A DNA stretch of 64,000 bases, taken from an uncultured Saprospiraceae bacterium. GTDB taxonomy: Bacteria; Bacteroidota; Bacteroidia; Chitinophagales; Saprospiraceae. Each line of letters opens with the position of its first letter. Position 1 is the stretch's first letter. Shown here piece by piece: positions 3,464 to 57,452 of the stretch. The notes under the pieces are model-generated. The model had not been told where the DNA came from. It was given only the letters and a program-made list of their open reading frames with translations, and ran no database searches. Made by a program: the position numbers and the translations under genes. Where the stretch lies: assembly GCA_964419545.1 (NCBI GenBank), contig CAYQQU010000029.1:68-64067 (forward strand), read 5' to 3'.

Positions 3464-4429
3464 ATGATCAAGATTCTGGCCAACGACGGTATTCATCCGG
3501 ACTGCAAAACGCTCCTCGAGGAGGCCGGATACCACATCGATTTCGAAAAGATACCGGATGAAAAACTCCCCGAAGTATTGCCGGCCTATGACGTCATCAT
3601 CATCCGCAGCGCTACTTCCATCAACCGGGAACTGATCGATCGTTGTCCGGACCTCAAAATTATCGCTCGCGCCGGGGTCAGCCTCGATAATATCGACGTC
3701 GAACACGCCCGCGAAAAAGGCATCACCGTGCTCAATACACCGGCCGCCGCCGCCCATTCGGTCGCCGAACTGGTATTCGCCCACCTGTTCCTGCTGTCGC
3801 GTCGCCTCCACCTCTCCAATCGCGAAATGCCGCTTAAGGGAACAACGGACTTCAAGATGCTCAAAGAGGCTTATTCCGAAGGCGTACAGCTGCGCGGCAA
3901 AACGCTGGGCATCATCGGCTTCGGGCGCGTCGGGCAGGAGGTGGCCCGCATCGGCACCGCCCTGGGGATGACCATCATGCCGGTCGACCTGATCGTCCGG
4001 GAAGCGGATATCGATATCAATGTCTTTAAAAGTGAGGACGTCAGCCTCCACGTGCGCGTTCAAACCTACGACCCCCAGGAAGTGCTGGCCAAAAGCGACT
4101 ACCTGACCATCCACGTTCCCTTCACCGGCGGCAGACCGCTCATCGGCCCCGAGGAGATGACGAAAATGAAAAATTCCGCCATCTTGGTGAATACTTCCCG
4201 CGGCGGCGCGGTCGACGAGGCCGCCCTGCTGCAAGCCCTCAACGAAGGCCGGCTGGGCGGCGCCGCCCTCGACGTTTTCGAGAACGAGCCGGTGCCCCGC
4301 CAGGAATTGCTCAACCATCCCCTGATCTCCGTCTCGCCCCACATCGGTTCCGGCACCCTGGAAGCTCAGGCGAATATCGGACTGGAACTGGCGGATAAGA
4401 TACTGGCGTTTTTTGGGGATGATCAGTGA
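3464..4429 (+). CDS. D-isomer-specific 2-hydroxyacid dehydrogenase, probably a short-form D-3-phosphoglycerate dehydrogenase
   Basis: 321 aa with the NAD-binding motif GKTLGIIGFGRVGQEVA and the family blocks IIARAGVSLDNIDV and SPHIGSGT. There is no ACT domain. Confidence 0.85.
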   Translation: MIKILANDGIHPDCKTLLEEAGYHIDFEKIPDEKLPEVLPAYDVIIIRSATSINRELIDRCPDLKIIARAGVSLDNIDVEHAREKGITVLNTPAAAAHSVAELVFAHLFLLSRRLHLSNREMPLKGTTDFKMLKEAYSEGVQLRGKTLGIIGFGRVGQEVARIGTALGMTIMPVDLIVREADIDINVFKSEDVSLHVRVQTYDPQEVLAKSDYLTIHVPFTGGRPLIGPEEMTKMKNSAILVNTSRGGAVDEAALLQALNEGRLGGAALDVFENEPVPRQELLNHPLISVSPHIGSGTLEAQANIGLELADKILAFFGDDQ

Positions 4430-15137: not shown

Positions 15138-15345
15138 TATTTGGACCTCTGTTTGGTGAAAAATAGTAACCAAACAACCCCGAAGGCGGGCGAAAAGTTC
15201 TGTTCCTTTGGCTGGATATTCAAAGGGTTGATTATCAATAATAACAGAACACAAGGCCCGGCGCCTTCTGGCTTGCTCCGATCATTACAAAGGTAGGATT
15301 TTATTGGGATAAAATCATGGGCGGGACGTTGTGCCGGGCGTTTCC

Positions 15346-27109: not shown

Positions 27110-30100
27110 TTAACGTACCGTCAGTCGTTTCACTATGGTCCCCTGCGGCGTGCGCAAGCGCAACAAGTAGACGCCGCCCGGCAGATCGCCTATGGAAAAG
27201 GGAATGGTTTGCGGACCGCTGAGCAGCGGCCGTTCCCGCTGTTGCAGCCATTGCCCGTCGGGCCGGAAAAGTTCTATTTGTAATGTTCCGGCCTGCGGGC
27301 TGTTCAGGCTGATGTTAATCCATTCGCCGGCGGGGTTGGGAAATATTTTGACTTGCGGCTTTCCCGGGGTGACGGGTTCCGCGCCGGAGACCGTACCCGG
27401 CTCGACGATGGTCCCGCGGTGCGGCGCTGCGGCGCAGGCCTGATCGCCCTGGTCCGAGCTGACGCAGGCCTCGCTATTGTAGTTGACCAGGTCGAAAAAT
27501 TCCACGTCGTCGACGTACCAGCCGCCCAGGCCGGGGACGCCCTCCTCTTCCAGTTCGGTGCCGAAGCGGAAGCGCAGCAGCACCTCCTGCCCGGCGTACG
27601 GGCTCAGGTCGACGTAAGTATCGACCATGCCGCCGCTATCGCCCCAGAATCCTTCCAGGTCGGGAATCGAGAAGGTCCGGTAATTGAGCTGCCCGCGGTA
27701 AGGGTTCTTGAACATCAAGTCGCCCAGGTCTTCCCAGGCGAGCCCGCCGTCGGTGGATACCTGAACGATGCCGCCGTCGAGCACCGGGTCGGTGAGGTAG
27801 CGGTGAAAGAAGCGCAGTACGGGTTGGTTGCCGGAGGGGACGACGGGTTCCGCCAGTTGCAGCACCTGGTCGCTCTCATCGGGGGTAGCCGGCACAAACC
27901 AGGCGAAAGAGCCGCTATTGGCTTGCGTCGTGAATCCCAGCTCCCAGATGCTGAGGCTTTCCGAGAGCGGCAGGAAGACCCAGTTGGCGTCGCCCGTTTC
28001 CATATCGTCGTAGAATTGGCGCACCGATACGAGGGCTTCGGAGCTGGCCAGCGTATATTTCAGGTTTACCGAAGCTCCGCTGGCGATTTCTCCGATTTCA
28101 AAGATCAACAGACCGCCCTCGGTGGTCAGTTCGGCCTCGCCGCTGTAGGAACCGGCCACAAAGGCAGCGCCGGCCGGGATGGGGTCGGTGACGACCACGC
28201 CGCTCACCGCCGTTTCTTTATGATTGGTAACGACCAGCTCGACGTCGATCTCTTCACCTGCTTCGATATTTGCGGTAACCGTCTTGGCGATCTTAAGTTC
28301 TTTGATGCAGGTGGGCGGCGCGAAAAAGTCCTGTACGCCGTCGGTGCGGTCGAAGGGGCTGTTCTGCTGAGCATTTATCCCGAAGCCGCGCCGGGCGAAT
28401 ACTTCCCAGATCAGGCACTGGTGGAGGCCGTCGTAGAGCAGCTCGTCGGCGGCGAGGATGGCGTCGCGGCCGTCGATGAAGCCGGGGGTGCAGGCCTGCA
28501 GTTTCATGCCGTCCATCACCAGTTGGATGGCGATGTTATTGCCGCCCGCGCCGTAGTAGAGGTCTTCATCCCAGCCGTATTCCTCGACGAGCCGCCAGTA
28601 GAGGTCCCAAAGCAGGCTGGTCCATACCTCGCCCAGCGGATGGGGCGCCGAGGTGGCGATCACATCGTCGTAGACCTGGTTGTTTACCGCCGGGTCGGTA
28701 GCGTACGGGAAGCGCCGGATACCCGCGCCGTTGACGCCGGCCCGGGTAGCGAAGTTGCCGATGCCGCGGGGCATCTCCCCGGTATCGCCCGGCCGGGCGG
28801 TAGTGATGAGCGTAAAAAAATCGCTCCAGCCTTCGCCCATCTGTTCGTCATTGGTCAGGCAGCTGGCGGCGCTGGGCCCGCCGGTGAGGCGGTTGGAGAT
28901 GCCATGGCCGTATTCGTGGGCGATGATGCCGTTATCCAGGGTGCCGTCGGTAAACTCAGGGCCGCTGCTGCCCGGCGGCAATTGCAGGGTAGCGACCACG
29001 CCTTCGGCGATTCGCTGCCGGATGAGCTGGCAGTCGGTGCTTCTCAGCATCACGGAGGGTATTCCCGGATTGGGTACTTCGGCGACGCCGCCCATGCCGA
29101 CGACCGCGTTGTCGTAATTGCAGATGATGACGGCGATCGCGCCGGCGGCTTCCGCATTGGCGGTCTTTTGTTCAAAAAAGCAACTGCCGCGATCGATGAG
29201 GGCGATCTTGCCGGCTACGGCATCGGCATTGACGATGGGCTCGCAGGCCAGGGAAGGCGCCTGCGTCTCGTCGAATGCTTCCGCCACTTCACCGGTGACC
29301 GGCGTTTCGCTGACGGGCGGGCCGTAGCTGGCGGTGCCGGTGAGGTAGCTGCCGCTGATCGCTTCCGGCGCCACTACGGTGAGCAGTTCGCCGCCTACGC
29401 GGTTCCAGAGGTACATCTGCATGCGGCCGTTGCCGCCGTCGGGGGGCGTACTGAAATTGGCGTTGTTGATATTCTCTCCGGCGCCGTAGCCATCCTGGGC
29501 TTCGGCGATCACGTAATCGCCGCCGTTGCCGTCATTGCCGTAGGTGTTTTCCTGAAAGTTGCCGGCAGCTTCGTCGAACCCGTACGCATACGCAAAATCG
29601 TGCATGGCGTTGTTGAGGTAAAACAGCTGGGTGACCGATATTTCCTGATTTTCGCTCGGTTCGGCCGCGGGGTCATAAGGGAAATCGAAGAGGAGGGCGT
29701 CGCCGCCGTCAGGCTCATCATCACTGGAGAAGTTGACGTCGGCGAGGTCGAGATAGGCGTGTACGTTATTACCGCGGGTAATCCGGTATTCGAAACCTTC
29801 CGCGCCGTCCGTGTCGTGCCAGCCGAAGGGCGAAGCCAGGGGATCGGCGGGATTGACGACGAGCTCCCGCTCGCCGTGGATCGGGCTCTCCAGCGGCAGC
29901 GGCCATACGTTATATGTTGCACCGTCGGTCACTAAAGGAGGGCGGGGCGCCGGCATCGCGCCGGAGCGGCAGGCGTGCGCCGGAGAATGGGCATGGTGAT
30001 GACCGAATGAACAGTACAGGGTCCAGTTGTCTTTTTCCAGCATCGCGCCGGTAACTGCGTCGATGCGCAGGCTCCAGTAATCGGACGAACCGATGGGGTT

Positions 30101-30664
30101 CAGGGATAGCGACCAGGCCAGGCGTGCGCGGTCGGTATCCGGGAAATACTGATAGACCAGTTCGACGGGTACGTCATTCTGGGCGAAGCCGGCGCCGGAA
30201 AACAGGTAGCGCTGCTCTGCGGCAGTGTCGATGCGGCGGGGAGGCGCGGACAGCGCGATGCCCAGGTGGCCGGCGGCGGCGCGCAGGGCCGCTTCGGCCG
30301 AAAGCAGCGGCTCGATGGCATTGATCTTTTGTGCCAGCGAGTCGACGAAGCGGTTGGTCGCAAAGCCTACCTCGCCGTCCGGGCGCAGGTGCACCCCGGA
30401 GATGGCGTTGTGTACGGGAATACCCTGATGGCGTTGCTGCAGGTACAGGTGCGTTACGCCGTTGTGCCGGGAGCGGTACTGATCGTTGAGTTGCAGGTCG
30501 GCAATATCGCCGGAGGTAAGCCCCCAGGCGGTGCGTTGCTTTTCCAGGTGAAGCCGGGCGGCGTTCAGGAAGTCGGTCGATTGAGCTTTCAGGATGACGG
30601 GCCCCTGACAAAGGAGGCACAGGCCGACGATCACCTGAAGAGCGTAGATGTTGCGAGCATTCAT
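27110..30664 (-). CDS. M36 (fungalysin-type) metalloprotease with FTP propeptide, PA domain, C-terminal beta domains and a T9SS sorting domain
   Basis: 1184 aa with a signal peptide. It has the zinc motif AHEYGHGISNRLTGG with downstream GEGWSDF, and the PA-domain block GKIALIDRGSCFFEQK...AGA.AVII.N. The T9SS CTD is VKIFPNPAGEWINI...VYLLRL. Confidence 0.88.
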   Translation of the reverse strand: MNARNIYALQVIVGLCLLCQGPVILKAQSTDFLNAARLHLEKQRTAWGLTSGDIADLQLNDQYRSRHNGVTHLYLQQRHQGIPVHNAISGVHLRPDGEVGFATNRFVDSLAQKINAIEPLLSAEAALRAAAGHLGIALSAPPRRIDTAAEQRYLFSGAGFAQNDVPVELVYQYFPDTDRARLAWSLSLNPIGSSDYWSLRIDAVTGAMLEKDNWTLYCSFGHHHAHSPAHACRSGAMPAPRPPLVTDGATYNVWPLPLESPIHGERELVVNPADPLASPFGWHDTDGAEGFEYRITRGNNVHAYLDLADVNFSSDDEPDGGDALLFDFPYDPAAEPSENQEISVTQLFYLNNAMHDFAYAYGFDEAAGNFQENTYGNDGNGGDYVIAEAQDGYGAGENINNANFSTPPDGGNGRMQMYLWNRVGGELLTVVAPEAISGSYLTGTASYGPPVSETPVTGEVAEAFDETQAPSLACEPIVNADAVAGKIALIDRGSCFFEQKTANAEAAGAIAVIICNYDNAVVGMGGVAEVPNPGIPSVMLRSTDCQLIRQRIAEGVVATLQLPPGSSGPEFTDGTLDNGIIAHEYGHGISNRLTGGPSAASCLTNDEQMGEGWSDFFTLITTARPGDTGEMPRGIGNFATRAGVNGAGIRRFPYATDPAVNNQVYDDVIATSAPHPLGEVWTSLLWDLYWRLVEEYGWDEDLYYGAGGNNIAIQLVMDGMKLQACTPGFIDGRDAILAADELLYDGLHQCLIWEVFARRGFGINAQQNSPFDRTDGVQDFFAPPTCIKELKIAKTVTANIEAGEEIDVELVVTNHKETAVSGVVVTDPIPAGAAFVAGSYSGEAELTTEGGLLIFEIGEIASGASVNLKYTLASSEALVSVRQFYDDMETGDANWVFLPLSESLSIWELGFTTQANSGSFAWFVPATPDESDQVLQLAEPVVPSGNQPVLRFFHRYLTDPVLDGGIVQVSTDGGLAWEDLGDLMFKNPYRGQLNYRTFSIPDLEGFWGDSGGMVDTYVDLSPYAGQEVLLRFRFGTELEEEGVPGLGGWYVDDVEFFDLVNYNSEACVSSDQGDQACAAAPHRGTIVEPGTVSGAEPVTPGKPQVKIFPNPAGEWINISLNSPQAGTLQIELFRPDGQWLQQRERPLLSGPQTIPFSIGDLPGGVYLLRLRTPQGTIVKRLTVR

Positions 30665-30765: not shown

Positions 30766-30919
30766 CCCGGATTATTCATGGATTAATCTATTGCCGGCCG
30801 CCATTCTGCCCCGCTCACTCACCGTGTTTGGGGGATACCTGCCTGCAGCAGGCGTGTCGCCTTCCTGTGCGAACGCAAGCCTGTCAACCGTCATGACGAA
30901 GAACCTATGAATAATCCGG
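30766..30919. mobile_element. MITE/REP-like non-autonomous element, full-length (~154 bp) copy
   Basis: Terminal inverted repeats are cccggattattcatgg and ctatgaataatccgg. The copy is about 90 percent identical by eye to 42374-42522. It has no coding capacity. Confidence 0.8.
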
Positions 30920-31940: not shown

Positions 31941-32270
31941 TCGGCTCACCAGACATTCAAAGACCAAACCCGCACATTCTCGGAATTCAACAAAGGCAGC
32001 TGGGTCGTACTCTGTCGGCTCACAAAGCGCTCAAAGACCAAGCCCGCACATTCTCGGACTTCAACAAAGGCAGCTGGGTCGTACTTTGTCGGCCCACAAA
32101 GCGCTCAAAGACCAAGCCCACACATTCTCGGACTTCAACAAAGGCAGCTGGGTCGTACTCTGTCGGCCTACAAAGCGCTCAAAGACCAAGCCCGCACATT
32201 CTCGGAATTCAACAAAGGCAACTGGGTCGTACTTTGTCGGCCCACAGAGCGCTCAAAGACCAAGCCCGCA
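31941..32270. repeat. 74-bp tandem repeat, about 4.4 copies
   Basis: Units start at 31941, 32015, 32089, 32163 and 32237 (the last truncated) and differ by only a few substitutions. The unit length is not a multiple of 3. The unit has no stop trinucleotide in any forward frame, which explains the three overlapping track ORFs. Confidence 0.9.
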
Positions 32271-37575: not shown

Positions 37576-38994
37576 TCAGAGGGTAGCCAGCTTGGCCAGC
37601 AGCCAGGAGCGGTCTTTGGTCGTCATGGGCTTGGCGACGGCGATCTCGTCCTGCAGCTTCTGCCGCTCTTTTTTATCGAACGGGTTGACGCGCAGCAGCT
37701 TGCGGGTGTACTGGATCAGGTTGGCGAAGTTGTCTTTGTGGTAACCCATCATTTTCTTGCGCTGCAGATAAGTCCGCATGCTGTCGAGAAGCGACTCGAG
37801 GGCGTCGAACTCGGCCTCCTCGTAGTACATTTGGAGGAGGGTGGTTTTGGCGTTGAGGGTCATGAGGATATCGTCGGAGTCGAACTGGGCCAGGAGTTGC
37901 ATCGCCCGGCGATAGTCCTTCTGTTCATAATGCAACTTAGCCAGGCAATAATTGACGGTATCTTCTCGGAACTGGGCATGCAAATAGTCTTGATTATTGA
38001 AAATAAAGGACTGAACCCAAGAAAACTCGCCGAGCTTCAGGCCGGTGGCTACCACATTGCGGAAGGTGAAACGGGAGACGGTTTTGTTTTCAATGAGGAC
38101 CCTTTGTTCGAATCCTTGCCGGTATAAATCAAATGCTTCTCGGATAAACTGTTCGCCACCAGCGTTAAACCTGGCGGCACAGTAATTTATGGCCATGAGA
38201 TAGATATCTCTCAATTCTGAAGGAGTAAAAAGATGGCCGTTTTGGTTAATCTGTTTTTTAAGCGAATAGAAATGGGTCGGGTTCTCTCTATCGGTAAATG
38301 ACCGGTAAATAAAATAATAAACAGCAATTGCGGGAACTGAAAGAAAATCTTCGTTTGTCTCAACGTAACAAAGCACCTCGTCCAGAAGTCCAATCTTGTA
38401 TTCAGCTTTGAATACAGCTTGGTGGGAAAGCATCAGGCAGCTCTGTCTTAGTTTATCTGCAAAATACGTAAGGTCAAGTGCGTCGGACACCTCCTGCAGA
38501 TTCATTTTAATGTTGCGTTTTCTCTCTTCGAAAAAACGGTAGTGCTCGATTTGCAGCAGGTATTCATTGCGCATGAAATTTTCGTCCCGGTAGATCGATT
38601 TTTCCTGAATTTGCTCCACGCTGCGCATCGTCTTCTGAAAAGCCTTTTCCAGTTTCCGTTTCCGGTAGACGCTGGCCAGCCCCATGCGCGAGCGCACCTC
38701 GTCTTCGCGCAGTTCGTGGTAGATCAGAAACTCCTCCACGCACTTCAACAGGAAATGCATGGTCTGCCGTATTTTTCCGTCGTCAAATGGCTCGCCGGGA
38801 AAAATCTTGGCAAAAACCCGTTCTTTTTGCAGAAATTTAGATTCCCGTAAGTGGCGGCCGGTGAATAAGTACTCGAAAAGCGCGATCACGTCCTCGCGCT
38901 GGTTGTGCACCGGCGAGTGCAGCCATTTGCGCAATTCCCGAATCTCCTTCTTGGTCAGGGTAGACAAAATAATGGCCAAATGACTATTTTCCAT
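37576..38994 (-). CDS. Uncharacterised all-alpha/TPR-like cytoplasmic protein, cassette 1 partner
   Basis: I start at the ATG giving MENSHLAIILSTLTKKEIRELRKWLHSP, which aligns with the N-terminus of paralogue 42584-43990. It has no signal peptide or TM segment. I recognise no family. Confidence 0.8.
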   Translation of the reverse strand: MENSHLAIILSTLTKKEIRELRKWLHSPVHNQREDVIALFEYLFTGRHLRESKFLQKERVFAKIFPGEPFDDGKIRQTMHFLLKCVEEFLIYHELREDEVRSRMGLASVYRKRKLEKAFQKTMRSVEQIQEKSIYRDENFMRNEYLLQIEHYRFFEERKRNIKMNLQEVSDALDLTYFADKLRQSCLMLSHQAVFKAEYKIGLLDEVLCYVETNEDFLSVPAIAVYYFIYRSFTDRENPTHFYSLKKQINQNGHLFTPSELRDIYLMAINYCAARFNAGGEQFIREAFDLYRQGFEQRVLIENKTVSRFTFRNVVATGLKLGEFSWVQSFIFNNQDYLHAQFREDTVNYCLAKLHYEQKDYRRAMQLLAQFDSDDILMTLNAKTTLLQMYYEEAEFDALESLLDSMRTYLQRKKMMGYHKDNFANLIQYTRKLLRVNPFDKKERQKLQDEIAVAKPMTTKDRSWLLAKLATL

Positions 38995-39252
38995 ACTGGA
39001 ATAATTAAGTTTTTTCAACAATGAAAACCGAGGCAAGTGATGGCTAAAAAATTGATTATCAAGTTATTTCGTTTTTTCATCAGTGTTTCTGCTATCCAAA
39101 AATACGCGTTTTTTTTCAACAAATGCGATTTATTGTCTTTGAGGAAGCAATGGGATAGCGGCATATTTGTATCGTATTCGAGATTGAAATATGAAAAACG
39201 ACTTGCGTCAATGATCTCATCGAACGCTGCACGACCGGCCCGCAACGCCTTA

Positions 39253-42180
39253 ATGAAGGTTGCTTTGTTTTTGGGGCTGGCGCTTTCGCTGAGTGTCGGC
39301 GCCCACGCACAGGGATGGCAACTGGTTTTCGGGGACGATAAAGAGGATGAAGGATACGCCATCGTCCAAACCGTCGACCACGGTTTCCTGCTCGCCGGAT
39401 GGAGCGAATCCTTCGGCAACCCGTTCGATCAGGACATCGATTTTTACCTGGTTAAAGTAGATGTCGATGGCACACTGGTCTGGCAGGAAGTTTACGACGG
39501 AGGATACGAAAGAGATGATTTCGCCTATGGTGTCGTGGAAACGGAAGACAACGGTTTTCTGGTCGTTGGTGAAGCGGAGAAGGAAGGAGGATCAGACCTC
39601 TACCTCCTCAAAGTGGATCCGAACGGGAATTTTGAATGGGATCATCATTTCGAGGCCGGCCCCGATGTATTAAGGGCGCGCGGCAACGATATCATACCAA
39701 CTTCAGATGGGGGCTATCTCATCACAGGGTTCCGGGAAACTGCCGACGGCGATGAGGATGCGCTGGCCATTAAGATCAACAGCCAGGGCGAAGCGATCTG
39801 GACGAAATACTACGGTAGTCCGACCCTTGATGAGGCAGCCAACGCGGTAACCAGGTTCCAGGACGGCTACGCCATCGTCGGCACCCGGTCGGTCACTCCG
39901 ACGGACGTCGATGTCATCGTACTGAGAATTGACGCCGATGGCAATATGGTCTGGGATGATCTGGTGCAGTGGCAAGGCGTCGTTCCCGGAGAAAACCGAA
40001 CCGACGAAGCCCTGGATGTCATCGAGAGTTCCCAGGGACACATTGTCTGGACCGGTTCTGCTAACTCCGGGCCGGATGCGGTGGTCGCAGCGCACGACGC
40101 AGCGGGCAACCTCCTCTGGGAGCACTTTGTAGACCGCGGGATCGGCGACAGCGGTGTTTTTCTGGAAGAAAAGCTTTCCGGGAATATCTTCGTCGCCGGC
40201 TTCACCGAGGATAGCAACGAGGACATCAACCACCTTTACTTTGAAGTGGCTGCAGACGGGAGTGACACCCTTTGGACCAAAAGTGTCGGAGATCAGTTTT
40301 TCGACAAGCCCAACGATTTCGTCTCAACCATAAGCGGCGGATATATGTCGGTAGGCGTAAGCGGGGTGGCCGGAGTGATCGGTTCGCTTCCTAACCTGAC
40401 CCTAGTCAAGTCCGACGCCCAGGGCAACATCCGCACCAATTATGTCGAAGGCCGCATCTTCCGGGATCTCGATGGAAACTGCGAATTCAACTTCGACGAC
40501 AATCTCGAAGGTTGGCTGGTAAAAGCAGAGAACGCCAACGCTACTTACTTTGGAAGTTCTAACGCCAACGGGCGTTACTACATACTCGCCGATACCGGGG
40601 AATTTCTGGTGACGCTGATGCCGCCGGGCCCCGACATCTGGCAAGCGTGCGAAGGTTTCGATTCGACACTGGTCACTTTTGAAACTTTCTACGATTCGAT
40701 TACGGTGGATTTTCCGGTGGATACCCTCGGCGATCCGTGCCCGTACCTTGAAATTGACGTAACGGCTCCTTTTTTGAATCCTTGTTCGGAGGTCGTCTAT
40801 ACGGTAACCTACTGCAACGTGGGCACCGAAGCGGCGATAGCCGATGAGACGGAGATTACCATCGAGCTGGACGACGAGCTAACCCTGATCGACGCGAGCA
40901 TTCCCTTTACGGATGAAGACACGCTCTATCGTTTCGATCTGGGAGACATCCTGGTTACCGAGTGTGGTCAGTTTACGATCACCACGGAAGCAGCGTGCGG
41001 CGGCATTGTGCAGGGGCAGGCCGGCTGGGTTGAAGCTCAGATCTACCCGCAAGACCTCTGCCAGGAACCCGATACCGCCTGGGATGGTTCGAGTATCATT
41101 GTCAGCGGGGTCTGTGAACCGGACCTGGTTCGCTTCAACATCACGAATGTTGGCGAGCCGATGGATACGCCAAGAACGTTCTTTGTGGTAGAAGATGATT
41201 TCCTCCTGCTGCAGGATACATTCAAACTTCCGGAAGGTGGAATAAAGGCAGATACATTCGCGAAGAACGGAGCCACTTACCGCCTAATCGCCCAACAGTC
41301 GGCATTCCACCCGGGTATGAGCTTCCCTACCTTCGTCATCGAAGGCTGCGCGGAAGACGGCACGGTGGAATACTCAACAGAATACGTGACACAGTTTCCC
41401 GAAAACGATCGGGATGCATACATAGCCATTGACGTACAGGAAATAGTCGGTTCCCTCAATGACCCAATAGAATTGAGAGGCTATCCCAAAGGCTACGGCG
41501 CCCAGAGGCTCGTAGACGACAGTACCGATATCACATACACCATTTTCTTTAGCAATACTGGAACCGACACTATTACCAGGGTAGTAATTCGGGATACCTT
41601 GCCCCCCGAGCTTGACTTGCAATCATTACAGCTCGGAAGCAGCAGTCATCCATACCAACTTCAAATCTATGACGAAGGTATCCTGAAATTTACCTTCTCT
41701 GGTATCCAACTTCTGCCAGGTAGCAGCGCGAGCGATCCGAAAGCTTACGGATTTATCAAGTTCAAATTATCCCAAAAACAGGACATCGTCACCGACGGAG
41801 CCCAAATCACAAATAGCGCTGCTATCTATTTTGAAAACGAAGCACCCCGCATCACGAACACGGTTCGTCACAGGGTTCGCACGCTGGAATTTCCCTGGTC
41901 GGAAATTCCGGTCAGCAGCCAGGAAACTTTTGTGCCGGGGGTTGAAATAAAAATTGCTCCGAATCCGTTTAAAGAACAGGCCACCTTCGAAATTGAGGGT
42001 CTGCCTCGCGGAGAAGTCATGTTCGAACTTATAGACGCCACCGGGCGTTTGGTCAGTACGAAGACCTTCCGAGGCAACAGGTTCGAGTTCCAACGGCGCA
42101 ATCTGCAACCAGGCGTGTATTTCTACCGCCTCACCGCAGAAGGGCAATTGATTAACACTGGAAAGGTATTAGTGCGATAA
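39253..42180 (+). CDS. Large secreted multidomain protein (beta-propeller-like repeats, DUF11-like modules, T9SS sorting domain), cassette 1
   Basis: The ATG at 39253 gives the signal peptide MKVALFLGLALSLSVGAHAQ (alternative ATG at 39211). The track ORF begins at 39037. The D[GN]G[YF]hhhG repeats are present, as are CPYLEIDVTAPFLNPC, NTGTDTITRVVIRDTL and SSHPY. The CTD is IKIAPNPFKEQATFEI...VYFYRL. Confidence 0.85.
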   Translation: MKVALFLGLALSLSVGAHAQGWQLVFGDDKEDEGYAIVQTVDHGFLLAGWSESFGNPFDQDIDFYLVKVDVDGTLVWQEVYDGGYERDDFAYGVVETEDNGFLVVGEAEKEGGSDLYLLKVDPNGNFEWDHHFEAGPDVLRARGNDIIPTSDGGYLITGFRETADGDEDALAIKINSQGEAIWTKYYGSPTLDEAANAVTRFQDGYAIVGTRSVTPTDVDVIVLRIDADGNMVWDDLVQWQGVVPGENRTDEALDVIESSQGHIVWTGSANSGPDAVVAAHDAAGNLLWEHFVDRGIGDSGVFLEEKLSGNIFVAGFTEDSNEDINHLYFEVAADGSDTLWTKSVGDQFFDKPNDFVSTISGGYMSVGVSGVAGVIGSLPNLTLVKSDAQGNIRTNYVEGRIFRDLDGNCEFNFDDNLEGWLVKAENANATYFGSSNANGRYYILADTGEFLVTLMPPGPDIWQACEGFDSTLVTFETFYDSITVDFPVDTLGDPCPYLEIDVTAPFLNPCSEVVYTVTYCNVGTEAAIADETEITIELDDELTLIDASIPFTDEDTLYRFDLGDILVTECGQFTITTEAACGGIVQGQAGWVEAQIYPQDLCQEPDTAWDGSSIIVSGVCEPDLVRFNITNVGEPMDTPRTFFVVEDDFLLLQDTFKLPEGGIKADTFAKNGATYRLIAQQSAFHPGMSFPTFVIEGCAEDGTVEYSTEYVTQFPENDRDAYIAIDVQEIVGSLNDPIELRGYPKGYGAQRLVDDSTDITYTIFFSNTGTDTITRVVIRDTLPPELDLQSLQLGSSSHPYQLQIYDEGILKFTFSGIQLLPGSSASDPKAYGFIKFKLSQKQDIVTDGAQITNSAAIYFENEAPRITNTVRHRVRTLEFPWSEIPVSSQETFVPGVEIKIAPNPFKEQATFEIEGLPRGEVMFELIDATGRLVSTKTFRGNRFEFQRRNLQPGVYFYRLTAEGQLINTGKVLVR

Positions 42181-42201
42181 TCATAATCCCATAAGCCGAT
42201 T

Positions 42202-42227
42202 GGTTCCCCGCTAACGAGCGGGGAACC
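42202..42227 (+). other. Perfect 10-bp stem-loop immediately downstream of the cassette 1 cargo gene
   Basis: ggttccccgc-taacga-gcggggaacc, with no T-run on either strand. Confidence 0.6.
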
Positions 42228-42330
42228 CTCACTTACCAAAAAAGAAAAGAGCTTTAATAATAACTTTGAAACACTAAAGAATTAGGTCGTCTTATTTTTT
42301 CATGAGATTATGATTTGTTATTAGCGAGAG

Positions 42331-42361
42331 GCCGCGTCTAAACGACGCGGCTTTTTTTTTT
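42331..42361 (+). terminator. Rho-independent terminator
   Basis: gccgcgtc-taaac-gacgcggc is followed by a T10 run. It is flanked by a further complementary pair, agcgag / ctcgct. Confidence 0.8.
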
Positions 42362-42373
42362 GCTCGCTGCCAA

Positions 42374-42522
42374 ACCGGATGATTCATGGATTCATCTCTT
42401 GCCGGCCGCCATTCTGCCCCGCTCACTCATCGTATCCGGGGATACCTGCCTGCAGCAGGCGGTCGCCTGCGCGAACGCAAGCCTGACAACCGTTATGACT
42501 AAGAACCCATGAATAATCCGGG
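42374..42522. mobile_element. MITE/REP-like element, full-length (~149 bp) copy between the two cassettes
   Basis: Termini are accggatgattcatgg and ccatgaataatccggg. The interior is colinear with 30766-30919 apart from small indels. Confidence 0.8.
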
Positions 42523-42583
42523 CTTACAATTAAATCTAATCTACGAGCTTTTTTTCAAATTGTTACAATAAAGATATAAAAAT

Positions 42584-43990
42584 TCATAATTTTTTAACCT
42601 GCTCCAACAGCCAGTCTCGCTCAGTCAGTACCGCTTCTGCACTTATTTCCCGCTCCAGTTGTTCCTTTTCCTTGCGATCGAAAGGGTTGGTTTTCAGTAA
42701 CATCCGGGTGAGCCGCACGATGTTGCGGTAGTTGTTGCGATGGTAGCCCAGCTTGCGGTTGCGACGCAGAAAATTTTGCATCGCCGCGAGGTGGGAAGCC
42801 AGGAGCTCGTGTTCTTCGGTTTCGTAATAGATCTTCAACAGCAGCGTTTTGGCGGCCAGGTTGAGCAGCGGATCATCGTAATCGGCTTTTTGCAGAGCCT
42901 GCATCGCCTGCCCGTGCCGCCCCCGGAAGTAAGCCAGCCGCGCCAGACTGAAGCTGTACATGCTTTCCCGGTGAGCCGGCTCCAGGTAAGGGTAGTACTG
43001 ATGGATAAACTGCTCGGTGCGAATGAAATCTTTCTCCTTGAGGCCCATCGCCACGATATTGCGGTAGGCGAAGCGCGACAGTACGCCGTTGGTAAGCAGA
43101 TCTCCCCGCTCCAGAGCGGCCCGGTATAGCTTCAGTCCGGCCGCCGCGTACTGCTCCTGCCCGGCGTTGAGGCTACGAATGCAGTGGTTGATGGCTAGCA
43201 AGAACAAATCTCTCCTTTCTTCCTCCGGAAAAAGAGCGGCATGCGCGAGCAGGGCGCGCTGAAAGTGAGGAAAATGCGTCGCCGCATCCGGATGAGCCAG
43301 CGTCTGATACGCATAATAGTAAACGGCTACGGCCGGTTCCCGATCCAGTCCCTGCTTTTCGACGAGTTGCAGAACGGTCGGCAGCAAGCCCCAATCGTAC
43401 TCCGTGGGGTTGACCGCGCGGTGGGCGAGCAGCAAGCAGCTTTGCCGCAGCTTCTGCAACACGAATCGCAGGTCGAGATGATCCGCCGTAGCTTGCAGAT
43501 GCTGCTCGCCGAAACGCTGTTCGCGGGAAGTGAACTGGTACGCTTCCCAGCCCAGCCGGTACTGTATCTCGAAATACAGGGCTTGCCGGTAGGGCTGCCG
43601 CTCCAGCTGCGCTGCTGCTTTGCGTAGCGTCTGCTGAAAATGCTTGGCCAACCCCAGCTTGCGGTACATCGCCGCCAGCGCCAGCCAGGTGTCGAGCGGC
43701 TCCGCCTGCAGCTGTTCCAGCGCCAGAAAATGCTCGATCTGCTGCAGCAAATAGCTCATCAACTGGCGGATCCGCTGGGCGTCATAAGGTTCTTCCGGAA
43801 AGAGGTAGGCGCTCATTTCCTGCTTGGTCGGCCTCAGCCCGAGCTCGAATAGCCGTTCTTCCAAAAAGTGGTATAAGCGCGTAACCGCAGGCCGGCGGTT
43901 GAAAAAGGGCGAGTCCAGCAAACGGGCCACCGCGCCGCGCTGCCGGGGCGAAAGTACTTCCAGCAGGGTAAGTAGCCGACTGTTTTTCAA
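42584..43990 (-). CDS. Uncharacterised all-alpha/TPR-like cytoplasmic protein, cassette 2 partner
   Basis: 468 aa. It aligns end to end with 37576-38994, sharing KLRQSCL.L.H, L.AIN.C....NAG.EQ, SRF..RN.VA.GLK, AKT.LL..YYE and NPFD.KE. Confidence 0.85.
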   Translation of the reverse strand: MKNSRLLTLLEVLSPRQRGAVARLLDSPFFNRRPAVTRLYHFLEERLFELGLRPTKQEMSAYLFPEEPYDAQRIRQLMSYLLQQIEHFLALEQLQAEPLDTWLALAAMYRKLGLAKHFQQTLRKAAAQLERQPYRQALYFEIQYRLGWEAYQFTSREQRFGEQHLQATADHLDLRFVLQKLRQSCLLLAHRAVNPTEYDWGLLPTVLQLVEKQGLDREPAVAVYYYAYQTLAHPDAATHFPHFQRALLAHAALFPEEERRDLFLLAINHCIRSLNAGQEQYAAAGLKLYRAALERGDLLTNGVLSRFAYRNIVAMGLKEKDFIRTEQFIHQYYPYLEPAHRESMYSFSLARLAYFRGRHGQAMQALQKADYDDPLLNLAAKTLLLKIYYETEEHELLASHLAAMQNFLRRNRKLGYHRNNYRNIVRLTRMLLKTNPFDRKEKEQLEREISAEAVLTERDWLLEQVKKL

Positions 43991-44056
43991 TTTGCAAAAT
44001 AATTAATTCGTTTTATAAATGGGCTGTTTTAAAACATGGATAAGGTACGGTTTTTT

Positions 44057-44414
44057 AGTCTTTGGTTTCAAGGAGGCAGCCAAAGACCAAAGACTAAAGA
44101 CCAACTGCTAAAGACTAAAAGGCTGAGGTTGAGGCGCCAAAGACCAAAGACTAAAGACCAAAGACCAACTGCTAAAGACTAAAGACCAACTGCTAAAGAC
44201 TAAAAGGCTGAGGTTGAGGTTGAGGCGCCAAAGCCCAAAGACTAAAGACCAAAGACTAAAGACCAAAGACCAACTGCTAAAGACTAAAAGGCTGAGGTTG
44301 AGGTTGAGGCGCCAAAGACCAAAGCCCTCCAGCATCAACGAACCCATCACTCACCGATGTTTTGCCCTCCGCACCGTCGAGCGACCAAAGACTAATGACC
44401 AAAAACCAAAAATC
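44057..44414. repeat. Hierarchical microsatellite array: heptamers AAAGACC/AAAGACT plus hexamers TGAGGT, organised in 3-4 higher-order blocks
   Basis: Blocks lie at about 44080-44136 (57 bp), 44137-44227 (91 bp) and 44228-44311 (84 bp), with a truncated fourth. They differ only in the copy number of the heptamer and hexamer units. An inverted copy (agtctttggt) is at 44057, and isolated heptamers are at 44384-44414. Confidence 0.9.
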
Positions 44415-44497
44415 ATTCCTTATAAACCACTTTTTTTGTCTTTGCTTTCCGCTCCTTTCTCCCCAATATTTGTACCGTAAGTAAACCACAAAGAGCA

Positions 44498-47338
44498 ATG
44501 ATCAACCGCAACCTACTTTTCATACTACTCTTCGCTTTATTCCTGCCGGCAAGCGCGACGGGGCAGGGCTGGGAACGCACTTACCCTTACGAGGCGCCCA
44601 ACGGCGCCGGCAGTGTCGAACAAGCGCATTTTCTGAATAAAACACCTGACGGCGGCTACATCCTGGCCGGTGAGGTCGACCTGGCTACCGGGGCGATCCG
44701 GCATTACGTGCGACTCATCAAGACCGATGCCGGGGGACAGTTGCAGTGGGAGCAGGTTTACCAGGAAGGGAACATCCTCCACAAAACCGTTTCCGGGGTC
44801 AGCGTACTCGCCGACGGCGGGTATATGCTGGCCGTCACTGACGTATTATCGCTCGGGTCGGATATGGGGTTGTTGCGCGTAAATGCCTTTGGGGACTCCC
44901 TGTGGACGTCTGATATCGTCCAAGGGCTGGCCCGGTCCCTGGTAGCTGCGCCCAATGGCGACTTCCTGCTGGGCGGACGAACGAACCTGGATTTTGCTAT
45001 CAATTCGCCTAAACTGGTTCGCTATTCGAGTACGGGGGAACTGCTGTGGGAACGCGTCTATTCCGAATTCGGAGAAGGCGTTTTCTTCGGCCTGGCGCCG
45101 GTGAGCACCGGGGGCTACGTGGCTACCGGCCGTTCGGAAGGGCAAACGCTGTTTTGTAAGCTAAGCGAAGCCGGAGATATCGAGTGGGACATCACCGGAT
45201 CGCTGCCTAGCAACGGCGGCTATGACGCGATCGAAGCATCGGGGGGCGGGTTCGTTATCGCTGCCGCCTACGACGGCTTCGCCGGATACGGCCCGTTAAT
45301 GATAAAGACGGATGCGCAGGGTAACGAAGAATGGACGACCTACCTCACTTCCGGCCTCGGCGTGCCGGTCGCGGTGGAGGAAACGCCCCAGGGCGACTTT
45401 ATCACGACCGGATCGGCGGGCGACTTCTGGTCGTTCTGGACCGGGACGACCGGCTTTATCAGCAAGGTAGATGCGGCGGGAACCGAACTATGGTCGAAAA
45501 ATATCTACAACCAACCCGGTACGCCTTCCGGCGCCGACATGGTGACGCTGCCCGGCGGCGGCGGTGTCGTAGCCGGAGTGAAGGCGAATCAGGCCTGGCT
45601 GACCCGCTTCGATGCGGCGGGCAATTCCCTGACCAACTGGATACAAGGCTCCGTCTACCGCTCCACTACCTGCGATACCGACGACGTCATCAGCCAGATG
45701 GCGGGCTGGACGGTGCGCCTCCACGACGACACGGATACCCTTTACACCCTTACCGATCCGCTCGGCCAATTCCGGTTCCTGGTCGATACCGGCAATTACG
45801 CCATCCGGGTGATGCCGCCCAATGCGCTCTGGACGGCCTGCGACGGCGATTTGCCGCTCGATCTGCCCGATTTTTACGATACGACCTACGTCAACCTGCA
45901 GGTAGCCGCCGAAACCATCGAATGCCCGCTGCTCACCGTCGATATCTCCGCGCCTTTCCTGCGGCGTTGCTTCGAGAATACGTATACCGTGCAATACTGT
46001 AACGAAGGCTCCGCTACGGCGCTCGACGCCTACGTGGAAGTTACCCTGGATCCTTTTCTCACCCTGACGAGCGCCGACCTGCCGTTCACGGACCTAGGCG
46101 ACAACCAGTACGCTTTCGACATCGGCGATCTTCCCGTCAACGAATGCGGCGCCTTTTCTTTTAGGGCCGAACTGGATTGCGACAATACGGTGCTCGGCCA
46201 GACGCATTGCACCGAAGCGCATATTTTCCCCGATACCAGCTGCTTTGATATCCTGCCCCAGGCGATCATCGATATCGAGCCGGCCTGCGAACCCGATTCC
46301 GTGGCTTTTCTGTTGCGCAACATCGGCGAGGCCGATATGCAGGGGGCGGCGAATTTCATTGTCATCGAAGACGATGTCATGTACAGCACCCAGCCCTTTG
46401 AACTGGATGAAGGGGAAGAACGCACCGTGCGCTTCCCGGCCAACGGCGCTACCTACCGCCTGGAAACCCTGCGGCGCCCCGACTTTTCCGACTCCAAACG
46501 CATCAGCGCCGTCCTCGAAGGCTGCGCCAATGACGGCTTCTTCAGCACCGGCTTTGTCAACCTGCTGCCCAATTACACCGGATCGTCGGCCATCGATCTC
46601 GACTGCCAGGAAAATATCGGGTCCTATGACCCCAACGACAAGCAGGCGTTCCCCACCGGCTACGGCGATGAGCATTTTATCAAGCCGGACACCGAGCTGG
46701 AGTACCTGATCCGCTTCCAGAATACCGGAACCGACACGGCTTTCCGGGTGGTGATCCGCGACACCCTGGCCTCCTGGCTCGATCCGGCTTCGGTGCGGGC
46801 CGGCGCCAGCAGTCATCCGTATTCTTTTTCCATCCTGGGCGGAGGCATTCTGGAATTCGTTTTTGATCCCATCGCCCTGCCCGACAGCAACGTCAACGTC
46901 GCAGGCTCTATCGGCTTTGTCCGGTTTGCGGTAACCCCCAAAGCCGCCACGCCGCTGGGCGCGCAAATCGATAACGAAGCCGCCATCTACTTCGACTTCA
47001 ATCCGCCCGTGATCACCAATACCGTATTCCACACCATCGGCGAAGATTTCATCATTTCCAGTAATCCGACCCCGCCGGACGGGCGAGCGCCGGTCACCAT
47101 CCGGGTTTTTCCCAATCCGTTCGTCGATCAAACGACTTTGGAAGTTTCGGGGCCGCCGCTCGACGCTGCTTTATTGGAGTGGTACAACGCACAGGGGCAG
47201 CTGGTGAGAAGAACGGTCGTAAACGGGAACCGCCTGGTGGTCAAAGCCGGTGCATTGCCGGGCGGCTGCTACTATTTCCGGCTGATGGAGCAGGGCCGGG
47301 TTCTGGGCAGCGGCGTACTTTTGCTGAACCGGGAATAG
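44498..47338 (+). CDS. Large secreted multidomain protein (beta-propeller-like repeats, DUF11-like modules, T9SS sorting domain), cassette 2
   Basis: 946 aa with the signal peptide MINRNLLFILLFALFLPASATGQ. Domain order matches 39253-42180: CPLLTVDISAPFLRRC, GSYDPNDK, FQNTGTDTAFRVVIRDTL, SSHPY, then the CTD IRVFPNPFVDQTTLEV...CYYFRL. Confidence 0.9.
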   Translation: MINRNLLFILLFALFLPASATGQGWERTYPYEAPNGAGSVEQAHFLNKTPDGGYILAGEVDLATGAIRHYVRLIKTDAGGQLQWEQVYQEGNILHKTVSGVSVLADGGYMLAVTDVLSLGSDMGLLRVNAFGDSLWTSDIVQGLARSLVAAPNGDFLLGGRTNLDFAINSPKLVRYSSTGELLWERVYSEFGEGVFFGLAPVSTGGYVATGRSEGQTLFCKLSEAGDIEWDITGSLPSNGGYDAIEASGGGFVIAAAYDGFAGYGPLMIKTDAQGNEEWTTYLTSGLGVPVAVEETPQGDFITTGSAGDFWSFWTGTTGFISKVDAAGTELWSKNIYNQPGTPSGADMVTLPGGGGVVAGVKANQAWLTRFDAAGNSLTNWIQGSVYRSTTCDTDDVISQMAGWTVRLHDDTDTLYTLTDPLGQFRFLVDTGNYAIRVMPPNALWTACDGDLPLDLPDFYDTTYVNLQVAAETIECPLLTVDISAPFLRRCFENTYTVQYCNEGSATALDAYVEVTLDPFLTLTSADLPFTDLGDNQYAFDIGDLPVNECGAFSFRAELDCDNTVLGQTHCTEAHIFPDTSCFDILPQAIIDIEPACEPDSVAFLLRNIGEADMQGAANFIVIEDDVMYSTQPFELDEGEERTVRFPANGATYRLETLRRPDFSDSKRISAVLEGCANDGFFSTGFVNLLPNYTGSSAIDLDCQENIGSYDPNDKQAFPTGYGDEHFIKPDTELEYLIRFQNTGTDTAFRVVIRDTLASWLDPASVRAGASSHPYSFSILGGGILEFVFDPIALPDSNVNVAGSIGFVRFAVTPKAATPLGAQIDNEAAIYFDFNPPVITNTVFHTIGEDFIISSNPTPPDGRAPVTIRVFPNPFVDQTTLEVSGPPLDAALLEWYNAQGQLVRRTVVNGNRLVVKAGALPGGCYYFRLMEQGRVLGSGVLLLNRE

Positions 47339-56649: not shown

Positions 56650-57372
56650 TTGACCTGGCAGGCATTCGTACAGCCGAATACCCACTTCGGACTTTTTAAC
56701 AACCAACATCTGCTGATGTTGGCGCTGACCGTGCTATTGTCCGTCCTTTTGGCGTTTCTGGGCCGCCGGACGCCTTCGGAACGGCGCCGCCTGCGCCTGG
56801 CCCGCCTGTTGAGCCTGGTGCTGAGCGGCACGGTGATCGGCTGGACGTTGCTGCGGCTGCGGCTGGGCGTTTTCGATCATCGCACCGATCTGCCCTTCGA
56901 CATCTGCAACATGCTGGCCCTGGCGGCGCCCCTCTATGCCTGGCGCCCCCGGCAGCGCGTATTCGAGATCGTTCACCTTTGGGTGCTGGCCGGCACCCTG
57001 CAGGCGGTGCTTACGCCCCACCTGGAGGAAGGGTTCCCGCATTTTACGTTCTTCAAATACTGGATCGTGCACGGCGGGCTGATCGTTTTTGTCATCTATC
57101 TCGCCGTCGCTTTTCAGCTTTTTCCCACGCTGCGTTCGGTAGGGCGGGCTTTCCTCTGGTTGCAGGGGTACGGGCTATTCGTGCTGGCCGGCAATCTGCT
57201 GCTGGGCGCCAATTACGTCTACCTCCTCGGCAAGCCGCCCACGGCTTCGGCGCTCGACTACCTGGGGCCCTGGCCTTATTACCTGCTGGTAGTGGAAGGA
57301 GTGGCCCTGTTGCTGTTCCTGCTGATCTACCGGGTCACCGCGAGCCTGCGCCGGTGGCTGAATTTCTCCTGA
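56650..57372 (+). CDS. TIGR02206 (YwaF-like) family integral membrane protein
   Basis: 240 aa with a TTG start as given in the track. It has about seven TM helices. LPF.ICN, ...LTP.L...FP.F.F..Y...HG resembles TIGR02206. Confidence 0.6.
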   Translation: MTWQAFVQPNTHFGLFNNQHLLMLALTVLLSVLLAFLGRRTPSERRRLRLARLLSLVLSGTVIGWTLLRLRLGVFDHRTDLPFDICNMLALAAPLYAWRPRQRVFEIVHLWVLAGTLQAVLTPHLEEGFPHFTFFKYWIVHGGLIVFVIYLAVAFQLFPTLRSVGRAFLWLQGYGLFVLAGNLLLGANYVYLLGKPPTASALDYLGPWPYYLLVVEGVALLLFLLIYRVTASLRRWLNFS

Positions 57373-57452
57373 AGCAAAGAGCCGAAGAGACCCAAGCAGC
57401 TAACCAAACCCCGTTTTTGTTTCGTAACTTCGCCAGGCAAAACGATGAACGC

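Follow-up and report, generated by a model that had tools for sequence, protein, structure and literature searches.

Two adjacent gene pairs were found in a 64,000-nucleotide stretch of DNA from an uncultured Saprospiraceae bacterium (NCBI GenBank assembly GCA_964419545.1, contig CAYQQU010000029.1, positions 68 to 64,067; the whole stretch is termed the window). In each pair a gene for a helical protein of about 470 amino acids (aa), here called A, lies head-to-head with a gene for a predicted surface protein, here called B, which carries the sorting domain of the type IX secretion system (T9SS). A is most likely a dedicated partner of the secreted-protein genes, and probably a regulatory one; the preferred reading of the genomic context, to which a probability of roughly 0.45 is given, is that A is a local regulator of the promoter region that the two genes share.

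The A genes lie on the minus strand and the B genes on the plus strand, and all four open reading frames (ORFs) were confirmed. A1 (37576..38994) encodes a 472-aa protein of an uncharacterised family, predicted to be cytoplasmic, all-helical and similar to tetratricopeptide repeat (TPR) proteins; A2 (42584..43990) is its 468-aa paralogue and has a TTG start. B1 (39211..42180) encodes a predicted T9SS-secreted surface protein, and B2 (44498..47338) its 946-aa paralogue. An earlier note, made from the sequence letters, had the correct frame for B1 but placed its start at ATG 39253 (975 aa); in public gene calls the protein starts at ATG 39211 and is 989 aa long. The note also called the secreted proteins giant, which is an overstatement at ~950-990 aa. 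A1 and A2 align end to end by BLASTP (472/468 aa, 38% identity, 58% positives, 4 gaps, E 9e-107), slightly above the one third previously estimated by eye, and B1 and B2 align over their full length (31% identity over ~975 aa, E 5e-128), so the description of a two-gene cassette present twice in tandem holds. Exactly two copies of each gene were detected in the window by tblastn. Two ORFs of 482 and 479 aa were considered as further A paralogues and ruled out; they encode a class II aminoacyl-tRNA synthetase and a RadA-like ATPase.

Conservation and duplication of the gene pair

A scan of genomes, one per species, returned at least 521 matching stretches encoding an A relative, and the best 80 loci were examined. 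These hold 102 A genes, 97 of which have enough upstream DNA to be judged. For 84 of the 97, a full-length B homologue is encoded on the opposite strand with its N-terminus no more than 900 bp upstream; for most of the other 13 the B-like match covers the C-terminal part only, and some of these matches are cut off by the edge of the locus. The survey of synteny called for by the earlier note is therefore strongly positive. The lengths of the A-B spacers cluster at ~159-400 bp. The gene downstream of A is not conserved; the window and two further species have a 388-aa ORF there, others aroB. The A-B pair is therefore the conserved unit. The 388-aa ORF, considered as an operon partner of A1, was rejected as it is present in only those two other loci.

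Two A genes are present in 22 of the 80 loci, and the order seen in the window (B2'-A2'-B1'-A1') recurs in loci L008, L010, L011, L014, L030, L035 and L085, where the A2-type orthologues are 42-51% identical. In loci with two A genes, the A2-type gene always adjoins a B2-type gene; at L030, for example, an A gene 50% identical to A2 neighbours a B gene that is 44% identical to B2 versus 30% to B1. Because orthologues of both pairs keep this order in other genera, with A2-type beside B2-type, the comparison indicates that the tandem duplication is ancient and preceded the divergence of these genera, each pair having been kept together since. Of the two origins that the note had entertained, an old duplication is thus preferred to separate acquisitions. 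Identity across genera is 50-60% for A and 30-43% for B, A being the more conserved of the two.

Partners of distant A relatives

Distant homologues were reached through a walk-out query, P0265, which is 31% identical to A1 and to which they are 25-39% identical. Six of the seven that were sampled have a divergent upstream neighbour with a Por_Secre_tail match, the Pfam family of the T9SS type-A C-terminal sorting domain (CTD). Only two of these six neighbours contain DUF7619; the rest comprise one cadherin/Big_9 protein together with small proteins (365-465 aa). The exception among the seven is on an Aureispira contig (L088, 4239-7392), where the A homologue lies directly 3' of an AIPR (abortive-infection) gene on the same strand, and a DUF7619/T9SS gene is located ~4 kb away from it.

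A metagenome scan seeded with six distant-clade sequences gave 80 loci, from a clade that is 28-39% identical to its own query. Analysis of the neighbouring ORFs showed the upstream neighbour of A to be divergent in 73 of the 80 loci (91%). When the C-terminal 120 residues were searched, Por_Secre_tail was found in 60 of 62 complete divergent upstream neighbours (97%) versus 6 of 71 downstream neighbours (Fisher's exact p = 4e-28), with four of the six in turn lying upstream of a second A gene as its partner. Clustering at 60% identity divides the 62 CTDs into 52 groups. The passengers joined to them are unrelated to each other (dockerin-like, PKD, beta-helix, SprB repeats and DUF7619), and the partners range in length from 162 to 1536 aa, the 162-aa one being little more than a CTD. 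Since the CTD is constant and the passenger domains are not, the family-wide rule is an A gene head-to-head with a T9SS type-A CTD gene, whatever the passenger, rather than with a propeller/DUF11 protein specifically, as had been proposed from the window.

Helical protein A

Neither A1 nor A2 has a signal peptide or transmembrane segment by hydropathy (maximum Kyte-Doolittle mean over 19 residues, KD19, of 1.05 and 0.68, respectively), as the note had said. The N-terminus MxNSxL is common to hundreds of homologues. No curated family matched A above threshold in Pfam, NCBIfam or PADLOC, and no sequence relative was found in the PDB with A1 alone or with a 27-sequence profile, which returned only consensus-TPR noise (E ~0.5). 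The note's inability to place this protein in a named family is thereby confirmed, and the Foldseek searches agree with it. In the Pfam TPR clan A1 scored best with ANAPC3 (19 bits, cutoff 27.2), and the matches of A2 had E values of at least 0.37. One canonical TPR motif, near residues 346-369, is weakly matched in 6 of the 18 distant A members (best E 7e-5).

An AlphaFold2 model built on the alignment of 27 homologues has a predicted local distance difference test score (pLDDT) of 89 and a predicted template modelling (TM) score of 0.75, with 25 helices and no sheet, which matches the helix-rich, TPR-like look described before. Almost all of its top Foldseek matches in the PDB are TPR or helical-repeat solenoids (Ctr9, APC/C, IFIT and Rap/NprR), with E values of at least 3e-3 and TM-scores of 0.2-0.46. 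When normalised to the target, the TM-score is highest for RapI among those listed (TMt 0.46), followed by other Rap proteins (0.42-0.43) and synthetic consensus-TPR proteins (0.39-0.40). A is therefore confidently modelled as a helical-hairpin superhelix, a generic TPR-like solenoid. The most striking motif of the family, KWLxSPxHNQR, is located in the N-terminal 95 residues, which, modelled separately, fold with confidence into a small domain of helices (pLDDT 92). Family members tend to be mildly basic (median isoelectric point, pI, 8.6 overall and 9.1 for the N-domain), and Asn and Arg residues at N269/270, N312/313, R411/412 and N425 are kept across very distant members.

A profile search of 1.84 billion cluster representatives gave a family size of 11,172 clusters (50% identity) at E <= 1e-3 and 5,233 at E <= 1e-30. 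Among the 150 matches listed, nearly all are 460-480 aa long and match over their full length without domain fusions. With the exception of one JGI label, evidently spurious, every source annotates the A homologues as 'hypothetical protein'. Where the source is named, it is Saprospiraceae, Lewinellaceae, Phaeodactylibacter, Lewinella or Aureispira, so the hosts belong to the Saprospiria group, with lineage checked for Phaeodactylibacter only; the Saprospiria homologues of A1 are 50-72% identical to it. A literature search found no paper describing the family or its pairing with secreted cargo, the one precedent to emerge being the TprA/Tap system of Porphyromonas gingivalis, discussed below.

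Secreted protein B

Both B proteins have the same layout, consisting in order of a signal peptide, repeats of ~51-57 aa, a Cys-rich middle region, DUF7619 and a type-A CTD. The N-termini of B1 and B2 are hydrophobic (KD19 of 1.94 and 1.77, at residues 13 and 6) and fit a Sec signal peptide. The period of the N-terminal repeats measures 51-57 aa, not the ~45 aa given previously. For a beta-propeller, the NCBIfam matches of this part are all below threshold (Lepto_SBBP_lipo at 34 bits versus 400, and delta_60_rpt at 26.8 versus 76.5). The proposed carboxypeptidase-regulatory/Cna-B-like insert was likewise matched below threshold in B2 (E 0.002) and not at all in B1. No sequence relative of B1 or B2 was found in the PDB.

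DUF7619 was detected well above its Pfam cutoff of 27 in both proteins (106.4 bits in B1 and 149.4 bits in B2). The DUF11 matches of B1 and B2 fall solely inside this stretch, and the Cys-bracketed modules that had been called DUF11-like have no DUF11 match of their own. The CTD of B1 exceeds the curated cutoffs (TIGR04183, 35.8 bits versus 23; Por_Secre_tail, 28.8 versus 27), and that of B2 is just under them (21.4 versus 23, and 18.8 versus 27), yet it aligns end to end with the CTD of B1 and contains the PNPF motif, so that the type-A sorting domain previously reported for both proteins is supported. Given the signal peptide, DUF7619 and type-A CTD, B is predicted to be a cell-surface protein secreted via T9SS.

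DUF7619, which is CnaA-like and related to CLIPPER/DUF11, is characteristic of surface and adhesin-like proteins and is predicted to form an intramolecular isopeptide bond (PMC12617251). Of the Lys-Asp-Asn triad expected for this bond, the Lys and the Asp are present in B2, as K715 (in DPNDK) and D755, with the expected spacing. In B1 the domain starts with DPIEL, and L741 occupies the position of the DPNDK Lys of B2 (at ~41473 in B1 and ~46640 in B2). Because this Leu replaces the Lys expected for the bond, the cross-link may be lost in B1.

Conserved elements in the spacers

Footprinting was performed on an alignment of 79 A1-type spacers. A direct repeat, TTTGTTGAAAA, is conserved at about -128 and -27 of A. 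In the window the proximal copy, TTGTTGAAAAAA (39010..39021, minus strand), starts at -27 from the A1 ATG, as it approximately does in most of the 79 spacers, and the distal copy, also TTGTTGAAAAAA (39111..39122, minus strand), starts at -128. The 10-mer core TTGTTGAAAA of this 12-mer has two sites only in the 64-kb window, both of them in the A1-B1 spacer. In 1.13 Mb of loci, the corresponding 9-mer was counted 62 times in the 23 kb of spacers (A sense) versus 41 times elsewhere on both strands, a ~140-fold enrichment. The two-copy layout is also seen in other paralogue groups, where TTTGT is followed by other tails (TCTCT, TCGG, TAAA, TACA or TCAAA), with the proximal copy at -16 to -36 and the distal copy either 60-66 or ~100-112 nt further upstream. 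Copies matching at 11 or more of 12 positions were seen in 6 of 23 comparisons within a locus versus 23 of 506 comparisons across loci.

On the B side, two boxes are conserved in the 79 spacers, TGTCTTTG and, 20 nt downstream, nAnnTTTGTA. The promoter-like region of B1 (39134..39171, plus strand) comprises TGTCTTTG, with a -33-like TTTG at 39138-39141, followed after 20 nt by CATATTTG(TA), which is -7-like (39162-39169); the distal repeat copy lies ~10 nt beyond this -33-like box. The region upstream of B2 (44436..44472, plus strand) comprises TTGTCTTTG, 20 nt and then AATATTTG, and the layout TTTG-N20-nATATTTG is found upstream of both genes. These boxes are called promoter-like from their resemblance to the Bacteroidota -33/-7 consensus. 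The spacer footprints fit a site-specific factor that acts on both promoters, and this factor may be A.

A perfect palindrome, TTGATAATCAA (39052..39062), lies between the two repeat copies in the 216-bp A1-B1 spacer. Its conservation among A1-type spacers is partial (consensus tTgataatcAa, with less than 80% agreement at most positions), and some A2-type spacers (L030 and L035) have it too, while L081 has the core TGATAATCAA only. The same sequence, which looks like one half of a Fur box, occurs at 15228-15238. An unrelated global regulator may use it as a site.

The A2-B2 spacer (507 bp) contains an 84-bp x 2.9 tandem repeat (44080..44324) made up largely of ~21 heptamers AAAGAC[CT]. Read on the other strand, the heptamer gives the GTCTTT(G) core found in the -33-like box upstream of B1 and B2, and no comparable array was visible in the last ~260 nt printed upstream of second-pair A genes. 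In addition, at 43985-44005 a TTATTTTG box abuts the TTG start of A2, its G lying 4 nt upstream; in A1-type genes the conserved box is at ~-27. As it combines a TTG start with a box abutting the start codon, A2 may be leaderless or poorly expressed. Locus L008 has an extra TTGTTGAAA pair at 4250 and 4349, 99 bp apart, that is outside any A-B spacer and sits between an A2-type gene and the 3' end of a B1-type gene; it may be what is left of a spacer, or a further target.

Possible functions of A

A direct functional dependency between A and its partner is indicated because the pair is conserved, co-duplicated and divergent, and because its partners have only the secretion signal in common. That the dependency is regulatory is favoured by the divergent layout, the conserved spacer elements and the lack of co-transcription, and also because a regulator with its target is reportedly, according to Korbel and colleagues in 2004, the commonest reason for a conserved bidirectional gene pair. 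A and B would then be an ancient unit kept together, with A acting locally on the shared divergent promoter region so as to control how the T9SS cargo gene beside it, and probably the A gene itself, is transcribed. A ligand or protein would be sensed by the helical-repeat body, in which Asn and Arg residues are invariant across the family, and the conserved 95-residue N-terminal helical domain, with its KWLxSPxHNQR loop, would be the output of A, contacting DNA or another transcription component. The repeated spacer element would be the site of action of A, though A might instead act indirectly, in a Rap-like manner. The output of the whole unit would be B, exported by Sec and anchored at the surface via T9SS, with its N-terminal repeat domain and CnaA-like DUF7619 stalk domain.

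Several observations weigh against regulation by A at these sites. The single feature that favours DNA binding by A is its mildly basic pI, and no DNA-binding domain was detected: the model of the N-domain has no significant neighbour in the PDB (best E 2.4, with matches to the winged-helix proteins CadC and PerR not significant), and no helix-turn-helix (HTH) family was matched across divergent A members even at E <= 5. In the distant metagenome clade the two-copy motif was not above its control (self mean 9.06 versus cross-locus 8.90), and it was accordingly rejected as a feature of the whole family. The A2-B2 spacer lacks the repeat pair and has the microsatellite-like heptamer array in its place. 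Part of the repeat conservation may also reflect ordinary promoter function, because the repeat contains TTTG, the core of the Bacteroidota promoter box.

A could alternatively be a cytoplasmic binder of newly made cargo, acting as a holdase, a targeting chaperone or a secretion-coupled sensor of the signal peptide or CTD, by analogy with the class II TPR chaperones of type III secretion. This is unlikely. In its favour, the signal peptide and type-A CTD are the only features common to all partners, TPR-like solenoids typically bind extended peptides or C-terminal tails, the Asn and Arg residues listed above are conserved in very distant members, and A has no detected DNA-binding domain. Against it, stoichiometric chaperones are normally co-transcribed with their clients, not divergent from them across a 160-400-bp regulatory spacer, and A is more conserved than B across genera, at 50-60% versus 30-43%. 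T9SS cargo passes the inner membrane via Sec, and we know of no cytoplasmic cargo-specific factor for this system. Only some cargo genes seem to be paired at all, since the M36 protease gene in the window (27110-30664) encodes a CTD and has no adjacent A gene, and 6 of 71 downstream neighbours elsewhere are CTD genes. A precedent for binding is nonetheless provided by TprA of P. gingivalis, which binds the CTD proteins TapA and TapB (PMC4674972).

Regulation and cargo binding would be combined if the A proteins were a receptor class for T9SS cargo, in which the groove binds the signal peptide or CTD of the pre-cargo and feeds back onto the shared promoter. This is considered improbable; if it were true, A receptors would link the expression of each surface protein to its own secretion. 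Chaperones of type III secretion are known to work in this way; for the type IX system no such coupling is known, and it would be categorically new there.

It is also doubtful that A and its cargo are merely co-regulated through a bidirectional control region, with A serving in another cytoplasmic process that is needed simultaneously. The family, PDB and fold searches gave no biochemical clue to an activity of A, and spacer boxes such as TTGATAATCAA could serve an unrelated global regulator, both of which agree with co-regulation alone. However, the linkage has outlasted full replacement of the passenger domain and divergence of A to ~25% identity, and the pair has been duplicated as a unit; such persistence is hard to explain without a direct dependency. 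Lastly, although T9SS cargo genes are frequent enough to occur as 6 of 71 downstream neighbours and as the M36 peptidase gene of the window, chance adjacency or hitch-hiking in cargo-rich genomes is effectively excluded by the neighbour statistics (60/62 versus 6/71, p = 4e-28, with 91% of upstream neighbours divergent), and a mobile cassette is very improbable given housekeeping flanks with no transposase or integrase among the ORFs scanned.

Comparison with known systems

One likeness in architecture is to the RRNPP TPR receptors of Firmicutes (Rap, NprR, PlcR and PrgX), which are also cytoplasmic proteins of ~350-470 aa, in which a TPR superhelix follows a small helical domain at the N-terminus and Asn residues are conserved in the repeat groove; RapI, as noted, has the highest target-normalised TM-score in the list (0.46, other Rap proteins 0.42-0.43). 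Their regulatory output on nearby genes is the proposed likeness for A. In contrast to them, A is from another phylum, has a T9SS cargo gene as its partner, lacks an XRE-type HTH, shows no demonstrable similarity to the Rap 3-helix bundle and has no significant sequence or fold match to the group (E at least 8e-3, TM below 0.5). No small pro-peptide gene was evident beside A in the spacers that were read, a systematic survey of small ORFs not having been made. LysR-type divergent regulators share the head-to-head arrangement across a short shared control region, with one conserved site by the target promoter and one near the regulator's own start, but A has neither a recognisable DNA-binding domain nor the LysR substrate-binding fold.

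Among proteins tied to secretion, the class II TPR chaperones of the type III secretion system (IpgC, SicA and SycD/LcrH) are likewise cytoplasmic TPR-type proteins, dedicated to secreted substrates, and some of them double as transcriptional co-activators that couple secretion to expression. They differ in being ~160 aa long with three TPRs, co-transcribed with their clients and partnered with AraC-type proteins, whereas A is ~470 aa long and divergently transcribed, and its cargo is exported via Sec and T9SS. TprA of P. gingivalis is, like A, a Bacteroidota TPR protein linked to T9SS CTD proteins, and a tprA mutant has lowered expression of tapABC in addition to the binding mentioned above (PMC4674972). 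Compared by its description, TprA differs in being reported as periplasmic, with three TPR motifs, whereas A has no signal peptide; judged from locus numbers, tprA (PG1385) is also not beside tapABC (PG2100-2102). B1 and B2, for their part, share DUF7619 and a secretion or sorting domain with fibrillar-adhesin-like proteins of the CLIPPER/DUF11-DUF7619 type, but have a single DUF7619 instead of a tandem stalk, a Leu at the DPNDK Lys position in B1, and an N-terminal repeat domain (possibly a propeller) in place of a known adhesin head.

Each of these analogues of A shares single features with it and fails at least one testable defining feature. The A-B arrangement is best described as a putative divergent pair of a local partner or regulator and its target, built on an unclassified helical-repeat family.

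Other features of the window

The genes flanking the two pairs are ordinary chromosomal ones, encoding FtsK, a SpoU methylase, an S24 peptidase-domain (LexA-like) protein, GcvT, a HEAT-cyclophilin protein, the M36 T9SS peptidase, the class II (Asp/Lys/Asn-type) aminoacyl-tRNA synthetase and the RadA-like ATPase, and no transposase, integrase or other mobile-element gene was found among the flanking ORFs scanned. A strong intrinsic-terminator-like hairpin (42326..42356, plus strand; 13-bp stem with 7 G-C pairs and a T run) lies 3' of B1, which suggests that B1 is transcribed as a single-gene unit. No known RNA element was found in the region by an Rfam search. A REP/MITE-like (repetitive extragenic palindrome or miniature inverted-repeat transposable element) 23-mer, CCGGATGATTCATGGATTCATCT, occurs five times with no more than 3 mismatches, versus 0 expected by chance, at 30767, 31807, 31859 and 42375 on the plus strand and 61062 on the minus strand; at least four of these sites are intergenic, and one directly follows the B1 terminator.

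A 74-bp x 4.2 tandem repeat (94% matches) is present at 31957-32270 in the intergenic DNA that separates the genes for the SpoU methylase and the S24 (LexA-like) protein, where a mechanically called 174-aa ORF has no family match. A 1007-aa protein encoded at 56979-60002 combines TPR repeats with a C-terminal CHAT (caspase-like) domain and is unrelated to the A family.

Significance

The regulators of T9SS that are known, PorX, PorY and SigP, act mainly on the genes of the secretion machine, and to our knowledge little has been established on how individual T9SS cargo genes are controlled. The A family is tied to such genes about as tightly as genomic context allows, and it is therefore a concrete candidate for cargo-specific control or handling in the Saprospiria, which are abundant in wastewater, marine and algal-surface communities. 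The pairing also provides a simple annotation rule for thousands of 'hypothetical proteins'.

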